From: a virus
Lineage: Duplodnaviria; Caudoviricetes
DNA: 52,477 nt
IMG/VR virus record: IMGVR_UViG_3300033182_000988
Coordinates: 1 to 52,477 of that record
Direction: 5' to 3' (one strand)
Position 1 is the stretch's first letter. Each line of letters starts with the position of its first letter. A program made the translations under genes and the position numbers. The notes beneath the pieces are model-generated. The model saw nothing but the letters and a program-made list of their open reading frames with translations. It had not been told where the DNA came from and made no database searches. Shown in pieces: positions 3,935-45,054 of the stretch.

Positions 3935-4855
3935 TCAGGTAGACAACAATAAGTAATAAGTCTCCCCGTTGATAGCAACAGGAACTTTATGGGTGAACGA
4001 AGTCACGTTTACTTCTGATCCTGATACAGTGCTGACTCCAGTGATTGTAATGTCATTATAAAAGAAGAGATCACCAATTGTAACTTCTTCACTAAGAGTT
4101 CTCAGTGTGCTTCCAGAGATTTCCCATGGATTGTTGTCTGCTGAGAATGCACGAGTGTCACCAATAAAGATACCAGGTGATTGTGCATCACTTAATTGAG
4201 TTTGACTAACGTTAAACTGTGCTGGGTCAAAAAGATTAACAGTTCCTTCAAACTTAATTTCTTTATTTGTCTCTGTATTTTCTGTTCCTTTATATTTTTG
4301 TCCGATGAAGTATCTTGCTGACTCATTATTTGCCTGAGTCGTATCAAAAATACTATTGATGGATCCTGCCAGATATCCACCAAAATCTTCAGTATCTTGA
4401 ATATCTGGTTGAATATAGTTAACTAAGTTAGTCTGATGAACTGCATCCTTACGAATAAAGTTAAATGATGTTGGAGATACTGAAGTAACTGAGATCGTAT
4501 TGATTCCAAGGTTTGATGTACTTGGAGTGGTTGATAATTTGAATTGAGTTTCTGTATTTGAGTTGCAGATATAATAATCAGTTCCTGCAGATAATGTGGA
4601 TGAACCAACATTTACGTCAGTGCTTACCGTGACAACATCATCATTTGTGAAAACGAATTCATTATCTGGGAAAGAAAAGAATCCATTTGTAAAAGTTACA
4701 AACCCAAGAGTAGATGTATTTCTTAAGTTATTCTGAATGACTCTTAAATCATTTGCAAGACCAACTCCACCAAGGTTACTTAATGCCTGTGTGTCGTTTG
4801 TATTCTCTTGAAAGTTTAAATCTTTTCTAAATCCTTGGTTCTGTCTTACTGCCAT
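3935..4855 (-). CDS. Virion structural / tail-associated protein
   Basis: 306-aa ORF; LSAGTDYYI...FKLS module; N-terminus resembles that of the 723-aa protein. Confidence 0.6.
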   Translation of the reverse strand: MAVRQNQGFRKDLNFQENTNDTQALSNLGGVGLANDLRVIQNNLRNTSTLGFVTFTNGFFSFPDNEFVFTNDDVVTVSTDVNVGSSTLSAGTDYYICNSNTETQFKLSTTPSTSNLGINTISVTSVSPTSFNFIRKDAVHQTNLVNYIQPDIQDTEDFGGYLAGSINSIFDTTQANNESARYFIGQKYKGTENTETNKEIKFEGTVNLFDPAQFNVSQTQLSDAQSPGIFIGDTRAFSADNNPWEISGSTLRTLSEEVTIGDLFFYNDITITGVSTVSGSEVNVTSFTHKVPVAINGETYYLLLST

Positions 4856-22259: not shown

Positions 22260-22344
22260 AGCTGGAGACAGGATTTGAACCTGCGGTGTCCTTTCGGAGC
22301 GGCATTACAAGTGCCGTGCGTTCGACCTCTACGCTAACTCCAGC
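22260..22344 (-). tRNA. tRNA-Thr(UGU) with long variable arm
   Basis: Acceptor GCTGGAG/CTCCAGC, D stem GCGT/ACGC, anticodon stem CGGCA/TGCCG with loop CTTGTAA, T arm GCAGG-TTCAAAT-CCTGT. Confidence 0.85.
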
Positions 22345-22665: not shown

Positions 22666-22739
22666 TAGGCGTGGTCGGATTCGAACCGACACTGGATCGA
22701 TTTTAAGTCGATTTTCTCTGCCTGTTGGAATACACGCCC
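22666..22739 (-). tRNA. tRNA-Leu(UAA), short variable loop, intronless
   Basis: Acceptor GGGCGTG/CACGCCT, anticodon stem ATCGA/TCGAT with loop CTTAAAA, T arm GTCGG-TTCGAAT-CCGAC. Confidence 0.9.
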
Positions 22740-42197: not shown

Positions 42198-42836
42198 TTA
42201 GACCCACTCCAGTGCTTCCGCAACTGTAGGGAATTGTTCAACAAATACTTCTTTACATGCATTTGCGATGTCCATGTGTTCCTTCTGAGTTCCATGTGCA
42301 GATCTCAGATCAATGTAGTGAATCCAGGAACGGCAAGAACCACTCATGTAGATACGAGTGGGAGTACACAGAGGAAGCACATTACGAGCACACTCTTTGG
42401 CAACACCTGCTTTAAGCATCTGTTGATACAGTGCCATAGATGAATCAAACAGAGTATTCATCTGCTTCTCCAACCTATCAATAATGAGCGGATCCAAGTC
42501 ATCAATACTGTTCTGACGATTCTTGGTGTCCTGACGACGAAGTTCTGGGAGAGGGATCGCCTTTGATAGTAGGGAACTATCAGCATAGCGTTGGGAAAAC
42601 TCTTGAAATGTGAAACTACGGTGACGCAAAATTTGGGCTGCGATAGCACGAGTAGTCTCAATCTCAAGAGTCATGAAAGACTGTTCAAACACACTCCAGT
42701 GATTGTGCTTGATGCAGTAACGCAAAAGACCTGCATAGTTTTCATTTTGCTGATTGGCAGGGTTGGAGACTCGGGCAACATATGCCATTGTCTGCTCTGC
42801 ATCAGGAGTCACACTTACAAGTTTAACAGTCATCAA
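42198..42836 (-). CDS. thyX: FAD-dependent thymidylate synthase
   Basis: QILRHRSFTFQEFSQRY ThyX motif. Confidence 0.96.
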   Translation of the reverse strand: MMTVKLVSVTPDAEQTMAYVARVSNPANQQNENYAGLLRYCIKHNHWSVFEQSFMTLEIETTRAIAAQILRHRSFTFQEFSQRYADSSLLSKAIPLPELRRQDTKNRQNSIDDLDPLIIDRLEKQMNTLFDSSMALYQQMLKAGVAKECARNVLPLCTPTRIYMSGSCRSWIHYIDLRSAHGTQKEHMDIANACKEVFVEQFPTVAEALEWV

Positions 42837-43073: not shown

Positions 43074-43217
43074 AAACTTAAATAATTTGTCAAACCATTC
43101 ATCTAGATGAATTAGGTAGCATGACCAGTAGTTACAACCTCTGTACTTTAATTGATAGCAGGCAGGTGGTCTGTTATCTTTATCCATATCATCATAATGA
43201 TACCGATAATTTTCCAT
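43062..43217 (-). CDS. Small protein, DUF4278-like (51 aa)
   Basis: Manual translation MENYRYHYDDMDKDNRPPACYQLKYRGCNYWSC...; LxYRG motif. Confidence 0.6.
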   Translation of the reverse strand: MENYRYHYDDMDKDNRPPACYQLKYRGCNYWSCYLIHLDEWFDKLFKFEGD

Positions 43218-43303
43218 TACTTGTTCAGCAATAGTACTTCCACATAAATTAAGAGAATGAAAGCAGTTGAACCAAGAACAATCCCACCAATTAGAGAAAT
43301 CAT
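43217..43303 (-). CDS. 28-aa single-TM peptide
   Basis: MISLIGGIVLGSTAFILLIYVEVLLLNK*; ATGA and TAATG overlaps with neighbours. Confidence 0.6.
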   Translation of the reverse strand: MISLIGGIVLGSTAFILLIYVEVLLLNK

Positions 43304-43425
43304 TTTTTCCTTACCTGGCAGTGTCCCGCCATACAAAGTTGAGCATTATGAAGTTTTTTGTCCTTTACTTGCTTTGCCTTAATGACAGAAAGCCAGTTGG
43401 TTTGGTGAACTTGAGGTTGTGTCAT
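43300..43425 (-). CDS. 41-aa basic peptide
   Basis: MTQPQVHQTNWLSVIKAKQVKDKKLHNAQLCMAGHCQVRKK*; ATGA overlaps and GAGG RBS. Confidence 0.6.
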   Translation of the reverse strand: MTQPQVHQTNWLSVIKAKQVKDKKLHNAQLCMAGHCQVRKK

Positions 43426-43568
43426 GATACCACCTCTACCTTCTTGGTATAAGAACCACCACGATAGTTCATGGTGAATTCTTTAACTTCGTGCTTGTGC
43501 TCAGTATGAGTATCATACTTTACACCACGATAAGAAGTGTTGGTGTTGTACAGATTTAAGATTTGCAT
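43422..43568 (-). CDS. DUF4278-like small protein (48 aa)
   Basis: Two YRG motifs (SYRGVKY, NYRGGSY); AGGAG RBS; directly downstream of the riboswitch. Confidence 0.7.
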   Translation of the reverse strand: MQILNLYNTNTSYRGVKYDTHTEHKHEVKEFTMNYRGGSYTKKVEVVS

Positions 43569-43604
43569 GTACTTACTCCTGAAATACTAAGGTTAATTAA
43601 AACC

Positions 43605-43860
43605 CGTTCCTTCAGTCGTTTGCGTCCTTGTTATCAAAACAATGAGGGTCTGTATGATCCATCCAGTGTGTGAGAATTTCAAGTTTCTCACTTGGAGTGA
43701 AGAAGTCAACCCTCGCTAGACCATTTGCTAACCAATCAAAGTCCTCACACCTAAGGTACATCTCAGGTGGGACATGACTAAAGAGAATTAGAGCAAGTGA
43801 TAACATAGGATCAACGGAACCGTTGCGCGACTTACTTGCGTCTGGTTGCCCAGATGAACG
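43605..43860 (-). ncRNA. Glutamine riboswitch (glnA / Downstream-peptide type) with large insertion
   Basis: P1 CGTTC/GAACG, P2 TCTGG-GCAA-CCAGA, CGCAAGTA, P3 AGTCG/CGACT, GAAG. Confidence 0.8.
43612..43806 (-). CDS. 64-aa hypothetical protein nested inside the riboswitch
   Basis: ATG start with hydrophobic N-terminus; its final codons KDAND* are the 3' riboswitch strand. Confidence 0.65.
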   Translation of the reverse strand: MLSLALILFSHVPPEMYLRCEDFDWLANGLARVDFFTPSEKLEILTHWMDHTDPHCFDNKDAND

Positions 43861-43867
43861 TATAGGT

Positions 43868-43896
43868 ATTATATACCTTATAATTTATATAGTCAA
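43868..43896 (-). promoter_or_regulatory. Sigma70 promoter of the riboswitch operon
   Basis: TTGACT-N17-TATAAT ending 7 nt before P1. Confidence 0.8.
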
Positions 43897-43994
43897 GTTG
43901 TTATTTTTTATACATTTACAGTATCAATAGAATACACAAATTTTCTATTGCTGACTACATCTCGTATCAAATCATCAAATAATTGTCTATTTTT

Positions 43995-44171
43995 TTACTC
44001 AACCAAATCACTAACACCTTCCATCAGTTTGGAGATGACCTTTTCGTTTCCGTCCATCTTCTTGACTTCAAAAAGAGGAGAACGCATATACTTTTTAAGT
44101 TTCTTATACTTTTTCTTTACACCTTTAATTGCATCAAGATCAATTCCGATGTTTAAGTTGTTGTCAGTCAT
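43995..44171 (-). CDS. Small Lys-rich hypothetical protein (58 aa)
   Basis: Manual translation MTDNNLNIGIDLDAIKGVKKKYKKLKKYMRSPLF...; ATGA overlap. Confidence 0.65.
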   Translation of the reverse strand: MTDNNLNIGIDLDAIKGVKKKYKKLKKYMRSPLFEVKKMDGNEKVISKLMEGVSDLVE

Positions 44172-44428
44172 TTCTTTTTCTTAGTTCCAGGGGGATTCCA
44201 TAGTTTTGGATTTGTTCTTCCTTCTGATTGTTTAAATCCAATCAGGTCTTCACGATACAAATCCCAATAGTAATCAAAGATATCTACCTTTTTAGTGCAT
44301 ATAACCAGATCCCATTTAGTTACACCATCAGAGATATACTCTACCAAGTAACTGGTACAGGGTAGAGATCTATCATTTGCGGCTTCTGGGTCGCAGTCCT
44401 TTTGTATAAATTTAATCTTAGGACTCAA
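44168..44428 (-). CDS. Conserved hypothetical protein
   Basis: 86-aa ORF overlapping both neighbours by 4 nt. Confidence 0.65.
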   Translation of the reverse strand: MSPKIKFIQKDCDPEAANDRSLPCTSYLVEYISDGVTKWDLVICTKKVDIFDYYWDLYREDLIGFKQSEGRTNPKLWNPPGTKKKK

Positions 44429-45054
44429 CTTCTACCACCCCACTGAATATCTGGATATGCTTCGGATACTACTTCCTTAGAAATACTATACCTACTTTCC
44501 AGATTCTTATCCTTAACTAGGCAAAGGATTTCAGCATCAAGTGGATGGAGTCCTTCCAGAATTTGAATGAACATCGTCTCCCTACGAAGAGACTTTAATT
44601 GATCATTACCACCCTTGATGAAATTATAAAACCTTCTCCATTCCTTTCGGATGGTAGTCTTGCCTTGTTTCAAGTCAGCAGCATTACCAAGAGATACAGT
44701 ATCAAAATAATCCATAGTACCAACCAACTGGTTGATCTTAGTACTGAGGGTTCCGTTTGAAACTTGTTCGTCTTTCAAACTAGAGTAAGGAACTTCTCCA
44801 GGGGGAAGCATAGAGATTACACTCTCATCAAAATTCCAAATGAACAATGCTTTGAGTGATTCATGCTCATACTTTTTCAGCACTTCAACTTTCTTTGCTT
44901 TTGTTCTTTGCTTTGATGCAAGAGTAAGAACTTCAAATGCAAAAGGATTTGCTGGCAGATCAAGCGTTGACTGAACAGACCGAGTAGTCTGAGTAGTTTT
45001 TCGCTTAGTCGTAGTCTTCGTCTTCGCTGTTGTCTTCGTAGTCATAGTATCCAC
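44425..45054 (-). CDS. Conserved T4-like phage hypothetical protein
   Basis: WNFDESVISMLPPGEVPY...RRETMFIQILEGLHP. Confidence 0.75.
   Translation of the reverse strand: MDTMTTKTTAKTKTTTKRKTTQTTRSVQSTLDLPANPFAFEVLTLASKQRTKAKKVEVLKKYEHESLKALFIWNFDESVISMLPPGEVPYSSLKDEQVSNGTLSTKINQLVGTMDYFDTVSLGNAADLKQGKTTIRKEWRRFYNFIKGGNDQLKSLRRETMFIQILEGLHPLDAEILCLVKDKNLESRYSISKEVVSEAYPDIQWGGRS

Follow-up and report, generated by a model that had tools for sequence, protein, structure and literature searches.

A predicted glnA-type aptamer split around a conserved protein-coding gene in T4-like cyanophages

Layout of the locus

The stretch analyzed here, called the window throughout, is a 52,477-base viral contig (IMG/VR record IMGVR_UViG_3300033182_000988) with an estimated completeness of 26%, and its closest relatives are T4-like Synechococcus myoviruses of the family Kyanoviridae. 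Between positions 43896 and 43605 it carries a promoter followed by a candidate glutamine riboswitch, into which a complete open reading frame (ORF) of 64 codons is built (Table 1). A first-pass annotation had described a sigma70 promoter and then the motifs of a glnA-type glutamine aptamer, with the ORF between the two halves of the aptamer, and the promoter and the order of the motifs proved to be correct to the base. The elements CGUUC-A, P2, CG(C)AAGUA, P3, GAAG and GAACG stand in the same order as in glnA RNA (Rfam family RF01739), matching both the consensus and the structure line of that family. The RF01739 joining strands CGGAAGUA and GAAG have their counterparts in CGCAAGUA and GAAG of the window, the stretch from the 3' strand of P3 through GAAG to the 3' strand of outer P1 (43618-43605) agrees with the consensus GAAGGAACG, and outer P1 as a whole agrees with it, too. 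The outer three-way junction carries every conserved element of a glnA-type aptamer.

Conservation was followed in 135 loci, comprising 15 from cultured phages, 39 from IMG/VR and the best 80 of 217 metagenome loci, both sets found by a search with the protein that is independent of the RNA motifs, and the window. Eleven sources ran into a contig end or had no 3' anchor, and the other 124 gave 95 distinct modules. Five distinct modules (seven loci) with a different first arm were excluded from alignment A2, which has 90 rows and 87 distinct sequences. The layout is shared by all 15 loci of cultured Synechococcus myoviruses, which belong to several Kyanoviridae genera; these loci have two CGTTNA motifs 43 to 57 nt apart and one GAAGGAAC about 203 nt past the second motif, and the ORF-bearing form is found in S-RSM4, S-RIM8, S-WAM1, S-H9-1 and other cultured phages. 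Since the same order and spacing recur in 15 of 15 cultured-phage loci and in the 124 usable sources, the order of the motifs at the locus is not due to chance.

Outer P1 forms five standard pairs in all 87 distinct sequences and is invariant, whereas P2a, which is part of the window's minimum-free-energy fold, has changes on both sides at three of its five pairs. P3 is a 5-bp helix that covaries in relatives. In the RF01739 model, P3 is a short capped hairpin of 3 to 8 bp; here, it is a long-range helix around 209 nt that contain a second junction and the gene.

Table 1. Features of the riboswitch locus and its neighbourhood (locus coordinates refer to the minus strand throughout)
Feature	Position	Sequence or remark
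Promoter, sigma-70 type (early type)	43896-43868 (-)	TTGACT 43896-43891, 17-nt spacer, TATAAT 43873-43868
Outer P1, 5' strand	43860-43856 (-)	CGUUC; pairs with 43609-43605; followed by A 43855
P2a hairpin	43854-43841 (-)	UCUGG/GCAA/CCAGA; outer junction
E-loop, 5' joining strand	43840-43833 (-)	CGCAAGUA (DNA CGCAAGTA)
P3, 5' strand	43832-43828 (-)	AGUCG; partner 43618-43614, with 209 nt (43827-43619) between
Middle hairpin	43825-43812 (-)	CAACG/GUUC/CGUUG; each of the two aptamer units contributes one P1-like strand
P2b, 5' strand	43810-43798 (-)	UCCU 43810-43807, bulged A (first base of AUG), UGUUAUCA 43805-43798 (rest of codon 1 to codon 3)
Nested 64-codon ORF, phrog_13397	43806-43612 (-)	UGA 43614-43612; function unknown
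Covarying hairpin inside the nested ORF	43767-43750 (-)	codons 14-19; RNAalifold columns 121-125/134-138: CG41/GC32, UA37/GC33; in window fold
P2b, 3' strand	43636-43625 (-)	UGAUAACA 43636-43629 and AGGA 43628-43625; codons 57-61
Inner joining strand	43624-43619 (-)	CGCAAA; reads CGCA(A/C)A in all relatives
P3, 3' strand	43618-43614 (-)	CGACU
E-loop strand	43613-43610 (-)	GAAG
Outer P1, 3' strand	43609-43605 (-)	GAACG
Likely expression platform	43615-43576 (-)	CUGAAG 43615-43610 / UUUCAG 43584-43579, overlapping Shine-Dalgarno AGGAG 43580-43576
Small hairpin within the expression platform	43605-43590 (-)	covarying
48-amino-acid DUF4278-like (IF17-like) peptide gene	43568-43422 (-)	two YRG motifs; presumed regulated gene
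Thy1/ThyX thymidylate synthase gene	42198-42836	neighbour of the locus
DUF6433 protein gene	44425-45054	neighbour of the locus

P3 is not capped by a loop but opens into a second, aptamer-like three-way junction made up of a 5-bp hairpin of P1-like strands (the middle hairpin), an A, the arm P2b and CGCAAA. The core of this inner junction, CGTTG-A-TCCT (43816-43807) and AGGA-CGCAAA (43628-43619), had already been noticed in the first-pass annotation. P2b is a 12-bp long-range helix that joins the 5' and 3' ends of the ORF, with UCCU/AGGA followed by UGUUAUCA/UGAUAACA, and its pairing is maintained by two-sided changes among the 87 sequences (UA45/UG27/CG6; AU69/GC4/UA4/GU3/UG3; UA86/CG1). Both P2b and the middle hairpin are present in the minimum-free-energy fold of the window RNA, which has an energy of -90.0 kcal/mol (z = -3.8 versus shuffles). 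Because P2b covaries and appears in this fold, the start codon sits inside a stable long-range helix: the nested gene occupies the apical loop of the inner arm P2b, and its AUG is buried in the closing helix. The annotation had offered two placements of the ORF, one in the loop of P3 and one in P2 of an alternative, Downstream-peptide-type fold. The ORF is indeed enclosed by P3, but in the apical loop of P2b within a second junction and not in a simple P3 loop; likewise, there is an inner aptamer-like unit with the ORF in its arm, but the score of the Downstream-peptide model in the window stays below the cut-off (see below). Since P2b belongs to the inner junction that is reached through P3, the two placements describe the same structure.

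The nested gene is conserved and coding

The nested ORF is open in all 87 distinct sequences, of which 75 encode 64 amino acids and the others 59 to 73; the start codon is ATG in 86 and GTG in 1. The median ratio of nonsynonymous to synonymous substitution rates (dN/dS) over codons 4 to 57 was 0.156. Of 300 random pairs, 221 were usable, and none of these reached a ratio of 1; the median dS was about 1.3. By codon position, the column entropy was 0.66/0.37/1.01, and all insertions and deletions were multiples of three. The ORF matched the profile of phrog_13397 over positions 1 to 64 of 64 (E = 2.5e-34). A tblastn search returned 43 phage records, 41 of them full length (identity, 54.7 to 71.9% among the 40 listed); the remaining two were Listeria phages and presumably chance matches. 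A homologue search gave 48 close clusters of 52 to 65 amino acids, all metagenomic and with uninformative names, and nothing more distant. By these measures of sequence evolution, the nested ORF is a real, conserved protein-coding gene. A Pfam search with the protein gave no family, and a protein Atlas search gave no usable match. AlphaFold predicted three helices with a mean predicted local distance difference test score (pLDDT) of 77.7; a fold search of this model against the PDB gave no match with an E value below 2.6. Two Cys, two His and two Trp are among the invariant residues.

In 77 of the 87 ORF-bearing forms, the middle hairpin has a GAG loop; together with other variants, this places GGAG 10 nt ahead of the AUG in 79 of 87. 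Among 80 ORF-less loci, the loop is GAG in only 4 and GAU in 62. The association of the GAG loop with the ORF suggests that it provides the Shine-Dalgarno sequence of the nested gene. It is extremely improbable that the 195-nt frame is untranslated and merely a structured RNA domain that is open by chance. The covarying hairpin inside the ORF, the start codon buried in a 12-bp helix, the lack of a Shine-Dalgarno-like motif in the window and the empty searches for a Pfam family or structural relative would all suit such a domain, but a frame that stays open in 87 of 87 sequences at this level of dS, the dN/dS values, the three-base periodicity of variation with indels in multiples of three, the GGAG upstream of most copies and the three-helix model all speak for translation.

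The coding region is also constrained as RNA. The hairpin in codons 14 to 19 covaries by coordinated codon changes, with CCUGAG/CUUAGG alternating with GUGGAG/CUUCGC, which switches the Arg codon family and changes Pro to Val. Third codon positions are invariant at codons 1, 3 and 60 to 64, and codon 2 varies. In the window, the UGA consists of the final T of CGACT and the GA at the start of GAAG, so the last codons and the stop do form the 3' strand of P3 and the E-loop, as had been annotated; the stop is TGA in 78 and TAG in 9 of the 87 sequences. Eight of the 87 sequences do without the last five codons altogether, ending at a UAG placed before them (59 or 61 amino acids); these codons are thus dispensable for the protein, and their freezing reflects a constraint on the RNA.

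Nested versus tandem pairing

Between AGUCG and P2b, the window reads CG, CAACG, GUUC, CGUUG, A and most relatives read CG, GAACG, GAG, CGUUC, A. The locus therefore has two CGUUC-type and two GAACG-type strands, which can pair in tandem (first with first, second with second) or nested (outer with outer, the middle two as a hairpin). The tandem arrangement would amount to two independent aptamer variants, unit A (43860-43821) closed on itself through a GAACG-like strand and unit B (43816-43605) closed on the 3' GAACG with the ORF in its P2, without functional pairing between the units. In alignment A2, 97.2% of the cells are paired in the nested fold, compared to 33 to 54% in slid controls. 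None of 500 shuffles reached the paired percentage, the double-change cells or the covariation score, and 1 of 500 reached the number of double-change pairs. The middle hairpin is closed by G-C in 81 of the 87 sequences and by C-G in the other 6, and this pair is never broken; the G-to-C and C-to-G changes in these six sequences, which include the window, cost one pair in each tandem P1 and leave the middle hairpin intact.

P3, the second helix that is specific to the nested fold, is paired in 99.5% of the cells of A2, with one A-U to G-U and one G-C to G-U change; one ORF-bearing relative reads CGAUU. To see variation in P3 without bias, viral contigs were also scanned with a pattern that imposed nothing on the ten P3 bases or on the variable bases of P1. 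Of the 78 distinct ORF-less matches, 62 have AGUCG/CGACU, 14 have the wobble-compatible GGUCG/CGACU, and 2 (L364 and L375) have the compensatory AGUCU/AGACU; P3 is broken in none. The AGTCG/CGACT helix of the first-pass annotation is thereby borne out, and strands that would belong to two separate units in the tandem arrangement covary with each other. Compensatory changes in the aligned sequences thus support both helices that are specific to the nested fold. Moreover, each unit is incomplete: in the first, the AAGUA strand and the 5' half of P3 are present and GAAG is missing; the second supplies GAAG and the 3' half of P3 but lacks GUA. Since the missing parts of each unit lie in the other, the E-loop strands and P3 of a canonical aptamer assemble only in the nested fold.

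The energies point in the same direction for the ORF-bearing form, though only modestly. With the respective fold enforced, the window had -85.9 kcal/mol in the nested and -77.4 kcal/mol in the tandem arrangement, and enforcing outer P1 alone brought along P3, the middle hairpin and P2b. When the two folds were compared sequence by sequence, the nested one had the lower energy in all 87 ORF-bearing sequences and in 42 of the 50 compact forms that lack an ORF; in the compact forms, however, the energies do not separate the folds, with means of -24.0 (nested) and -22.5 kcal/mol (tandem), and neither is the minimum-free-energy fold.

Several observations weigh against the nested reading of a split aptamer. 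Covariation of P1 and P3 had been proposed as a check of the first-pass annotation; P3 covaries, but outer P1, being invariant, has no covariation of its own. Each of the helices specific to the nested fold rests on about one compensatory event: L364 and L375 are near-identical, and the six C-G sequences may share ancestry (their loops are GUUC in five and GAUU in one, and their ORF sequences also differ). L033 and L051 have a C-A mismatch in P3, along with matched 3-nt insertions on both strands that lengthen the helix. Left unconstrained, 67 of 87 sequences have a minimum-free-energy fold in which the first unit is closed on itself by a helix termed P1a, and outer P1 is part of the unconstrained fold in only 1 of 87; the fold closed by P1a may be the ligand-free state. 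The overlap of stop codon and E-loop strand is not universal, given the earlier UAG stop in 9 of 87 sequences, and the window and its clade have no GGAG ahead of the nested ORF. Finally, the glnA and Downstream-peptide models of Rfam, with which the annotation had also proposed to check its claim, fell short on the window with the insert in place. Only the 5' part was aligned in either case, with 15.2 bits for RF01739 (permissive Infernal; gathering threshold, 35 bits) and 20.2 bits for RF01704 (Glutamine-II; gathering threshold, 33 bits). In relatives, the first unit scored 23 to 28.5 bits, which is also sub-threshold, and the second stem of RF01704 is only 3 bp long there. In the ORF-less locus L263, which comes closest in nature to the deletion of 43625-43825 suggested in the annotation, Infernal aligned RF01739 as two tandem sub-threshold units with 21.0 bits for the first and 33.0 bits for the second; from the latter score, the inner unit itself is aptamer-like.

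The self-closed P1a, the two-unit alignment of the ORF-less form and the scores of unit A on its own are what would be expected of two tandem aptamers, as is the direct 8-nt repeat shared by the joining strands of L033 and L051. Tandem glutamine riboswitches are also common; one survey gives 157 doublets (PMC9481103). Nevertheless, we consider two independent units unlikely, given that each lacks one E-loop strand and one P3 partner, that AGUCG and CGACU covary between them, that both tandem P1 helices are impaired in 6 of 87 sequences and that the tandem energy is the worse one in every ORF-bearing sequence.

Uninterrupted phage aptamers and covariance-model scores

Aptamers with an uninterrupted CGCAAGUA ... 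GAAGGAACGGG core were found in at least 120 viral stretches. Among the 62 distinct matches listed, most stand in the complete CGUUCA-hairpin context, and a few are due to chance. As a positive control, five uninterrupted phage aptamers were scored with RF01739, and all five gave 39.5 to 60.3 bits (cut-off, 35 bits). The G-to-C variant in the joining strand of the window is common to phage RF01739 members with these scores, and the phage-typical variants CGCAAGUA and GGAACGGG occur in both the uninterrupted cyanophage copies and the split form. The low Rfam score of the window is therefore ascribed to the insert, which cannot be spanned by the models, the outer elements being core motifs of bona fide members.

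Another tandem glutamine arrangement was seen in L206 at about 4077-4154, where 8-nt linkers (GGCCGACG and CGCCGACU) replace the P3 hairpin in both units. Its second unit scores 39.5 bits for RF01739, and the linker resembles the AGCCGACU repeats of L033 and L051.

Occurrence of the double motif and of genes in its arms

A strict pattern with plain hairpins as both arms matched 98 viral stretches (55 distinct versions among 80 loci). In this ORF-less double motif, a covarying hairpin, in many cases with a UUCG cap, forms the second arm, and the whole motif measures 79 to 103 nt. A looser pattern matched at least 120 viral stretches and nothing in 185,579 bacterial and archaeal species, each represented by one genome; hence, the double motif looks phage specific at this stringency. 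By its distribution among these sequences, the inner junction belongs in general to the phage-specific double motif, which mostly has no ORF. Contigs from RNA libraries, which derive from relatives and are uninformative on transcription, ends and strand, overlap mainly 43576-43677; in three runs, joined forms skip 43820-43628 and have 18 other letters in between.

A second ORF family was found in the other arm. In L034/L098, L067 and L068, a 65-codon ORF (about 210-465 in locus coordinates) replaces P2a, and the truncated L070 and L084/L087 probably have it as well. It starts directly after CGUUCAUCCA, its UAG stop overlaps GGA-CGCAAGUA, and it has a long-range closing helix of its own (-15.7 to -16.9 kcal/mol), the sequence of which differs between L034 and L067. 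The product weakly resembles the nested protein (E about 0.02 in a three-sequence comparison). A similar coding sequence replaces P2a in many loci with an ORF-less P2b, as in the upstream context of L258, L266, L292, L298 and others. All four combinations of hairpin and ORF in the two arms occur, and therefore the single aptamer of some phages would enclose two genes.

The four combinations suggest a cassette-like gain and loss, and they raise the question of whether an ORF cassette with 8-bp inverted-repeat flanks killed the riboswitch, the flanks being kept as ORF ends, translation signals or recombination sites. The sub-threshold Rfam scores and the setting of the locus, among small hypothetical genes and downstream of a promoter that bears an inverted repeat, would suit a disabled relic of this kind. 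The pattern of conservation would not: the RNA cores are invariant while the adjacent codons have a median dS of about 1.3, the third positions of the last five codons are frozen even though the protein can do without them, compensatory changes keep P2b paired, and the noncoding P2a, CGCAAGUA, AGUCG and middle hairpin are conserved outside the ORF. We regard a relic as highly unlikely.

Presumed regulated gene and proposed switch mechanism

The first gene downstream of the split aptamer, presumably the regulated one, encodes a peptide of 48 amino acids. It scored 24.8 bits against Pfam PF14105 (DUF4278), just under the cut-off of 25.3 bits (E = 2.9e-05), and matched phrog_5049 with an E value of 1e-11. 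An ON switch by glutamine has been demonstrated for cyanobacterial gifB. In a study on cyanobacteria, the genes found with glutamine aptamers are mainly those for DUF4278, a domain that marks the glutamine synthetase inactivating factor IF17, and the binding of glutamine is postulated to melt a helix that otherwise keeps ribosomes out (PMC6212724). The CUGAAG/UUUCAG helix of the likely expression platform is part of the minimum-free-energy fold; RNAalifold pairs 288-293/347-352 and 298-300/339-341 show mostly one-sided changes between G-C and G-U.

Taken together, we favor, with some confidence, the view that the locus is the 5' leader of an early transcript in which an interlocked double glutamine aptamer controls translation of the DUF4278 (IF17-like) peptide and holds a small gene in one arm. 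Ligand binding, the direction of the switch and the coupling to translation are what we infer from this layout. Without the aptamer fold, CUGAAG would pair with bases upstream of and overlapping the Shine-Dalgarno sequence of the peptide gene; glutamine would stabilize P1, the E-loop and P3 and so free the Shine-Dalgarno sequence. Because the anti-Shine-Dalgarno helix and the aptamer use the same GAAG, an ON switch would be the simplest reading.

Ribosomes could initiate at the nested gene only if P2b had not yet formed or was open at the time, and they would terminate at the UGA in the P3/E-loop strand (78 of 87 sequences), so that, while translating, they would block both aptamer folding and the anti-Shine-Dalgarno helix. 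Since ribosomes would open P2b and end on the P3/E-loop strand, nested translation and aptamer folding should be mutually exclusive in any one molecule. The outcome could be a burst of nested protein from the nascent RNA or a coupling to the peptide gene 44 nt downstream. Judging from the positions of these elements, sensing glutamine and translating the nested gene probably get in each other's way. A more far-reaching picture is possible, but we would sooner doubt it than rely on it: in cyanomyoviruses, a phage-only interlocked double glutamine aptamer might serve as a dock for one or two small genes in its arms, with start codons locked in closing helices and ribosomes crossing the core. It would then act as a kinetic two-input device, which gives a burst of nested protein from nascent RNA and later, once the ribosomes have left, folds anew as a sensor of glutamine with control over the IF17-like peptide.

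If this docking and two-input picture were true, the locus would be the first natural riboswitch with a ligand-binding domain built around translated genes. Riboswitch aptamers are usually treated as compact untranslated domains, and search models such as those of Rfam assume so and miss the locus entirely. If the split aptamer binds glutamine, a ligand-binding fold would be assembled across about 200 to 500 nt holding translated genes, ribosome traffic would be a second input to a metabolite switch, and cyanophages would tune an IF17-like regulator of the host glutamine synthetase, along with a co-located protein of unknown function, to the nitrogen status of the host. The short ORF-less forms (79 to 103 nt) are convenient for structural and binding work, and the cultured carriers make the ORF-bearing form directly testable.

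Two further features were seen downstream of the aptamer. An insertion of about 30 nt lies between GGAACGG and the Shine-Dalgarno sequence in L007, L008, L036, L037, L040, L044, L046, L050 and many ORF-less loci; it holds a covarying hairpin, ACGGAUCC-stem-GAAA-stem-GAGAAGG, and thus an extra GAAGG-like element past the aptamer. Beyond the DUF4278-like gene, a 41-amino-acid ORF (43300-43425, minus strand) matches only the N-terminal part of phrog_545 (2-25 of 55), and the C-terminal part (23-55) is matched by the 48-amino-acid ORF in front. At this place, the genes of relatives are complete, with 54 to 55 amino acids, and therefore the second peptide gene of the window may be truncated.

Relation to known systems

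Group I and group II introns carry protein genes in peripheral loops, and they share with the locus a complete ORF in the apical loop of a structured RNA whose core folds around it. They differ in that the host RNA here is a predicted metabolite-sensing aptamer in an mRNA leader and not a self-splicing intron, and the Pfam and PDB fold searches gave no likeness of the nested protein to homing endonucleases or maturases. An interplay of riboswitch and upstream ORF was reportedly described by Kipkorir and colleagues in 2024 for atypical mycobacterial B12 riboswitches. Translation of a small upstream ORF and a riboswitch share one leader there as well, but that ORF is said to lie in the expression platform, outside the aptamer domain, whereas the ORF is inside the aptamer here.

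Like RF01739 aptamers, the split form is placed right behind a promoter and ahead of a DUF4278-type gene. With RF01704 (Glutamine-II/Downstream-peptide), it has CGUUCA, a hairpin, CGCA... and GGAACGG in common, and CGCAAACGAC of the inner unit resembles the joining strand of the model; however, a second hairpin enclosing GGAACG is absent here and, as described above, the scores of 20.2 to 28.5 bits stay below the cut-off. The RF01704 motif is associated with short DUF4278 peptides in marine Synechococcus and Prochlorococcus, according to two reports (PMC2864571, PMC6212724).

Tandem glutamine (Sherlock et al. 2022, PMC9481103) and tandem glycine riboswitches likewise have two aptamer-like units in series on one leader. 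As far as the available part of that source goes, those units are self-contained and have separate expression platforms, whereas the units here are incomplete, mutually complementary and apparently interlocked via a shared P3. Glutamine riboswitches have already been published for T4-like cyanophages (PMC9602691, PMC9964418) and other marine phages (PMC9004378), as have tandem glnA RNAs (PMC2864571). The literature that was searched, supplementary tables apart, gave no account of an interlocked double aptamer or of a protein gene inside a glutamine aptamer. On the comparative evidence, the split, gene-enclosing arrangement is real, conserved and unusual, and its function would be the one proposed above.

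Promoter region and other features of the window

The promoter matches 11 of 12 consensus positions and is the best among three promoter-like sites in 43200-44200 (mean in shuffles, 3.1); its -10 region is conserved in relatives. The CGTTC of outer P1 begins seven bases past the -10 box, and the transcript start predicted from the promoter position lies 1 to 3 nt ahead of the aptamer, near 43861. An inverted repeat, AGGTAT-ATA-ATACCT, spans the -10 box (43863-43880, minus strand). It is found at the same place in L001-L051, and its arms covary among relatives, for example, GGTCTATAATAGACC, GAGTCTATAATGACTC and TGGTATAATAACCA. This repeat resembles an operator or the promoter-early stem-loop (PeSL) cassettes of T4-type phages, which were reportedly described by Arbiol and colleagues in 2010. 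The likeness to the latter would lie in an early promoter with an adjacent or overlapping inverted repeat ahead of small shuffled ORFs in a plastic genome region, and the difference is that the repeat here spans the -10 box instead of coming after the promoter. A GTA-N8-TAC palindrome, which we take to be the NtcA-box consensus, lies just upstream of the -35 box in L001, L004, L005, L016, L029 and others, altogether 11 of 90 sequences within the 43 nt of upstream sequence examined; it is degenerate in the window. At Rfam gathering thresholds, the whole window gave nothing but two tRNA genes, which lie at 22261-22343 and 22666-22739 on the minus strand and scored 44.5 and 54.3 bits.

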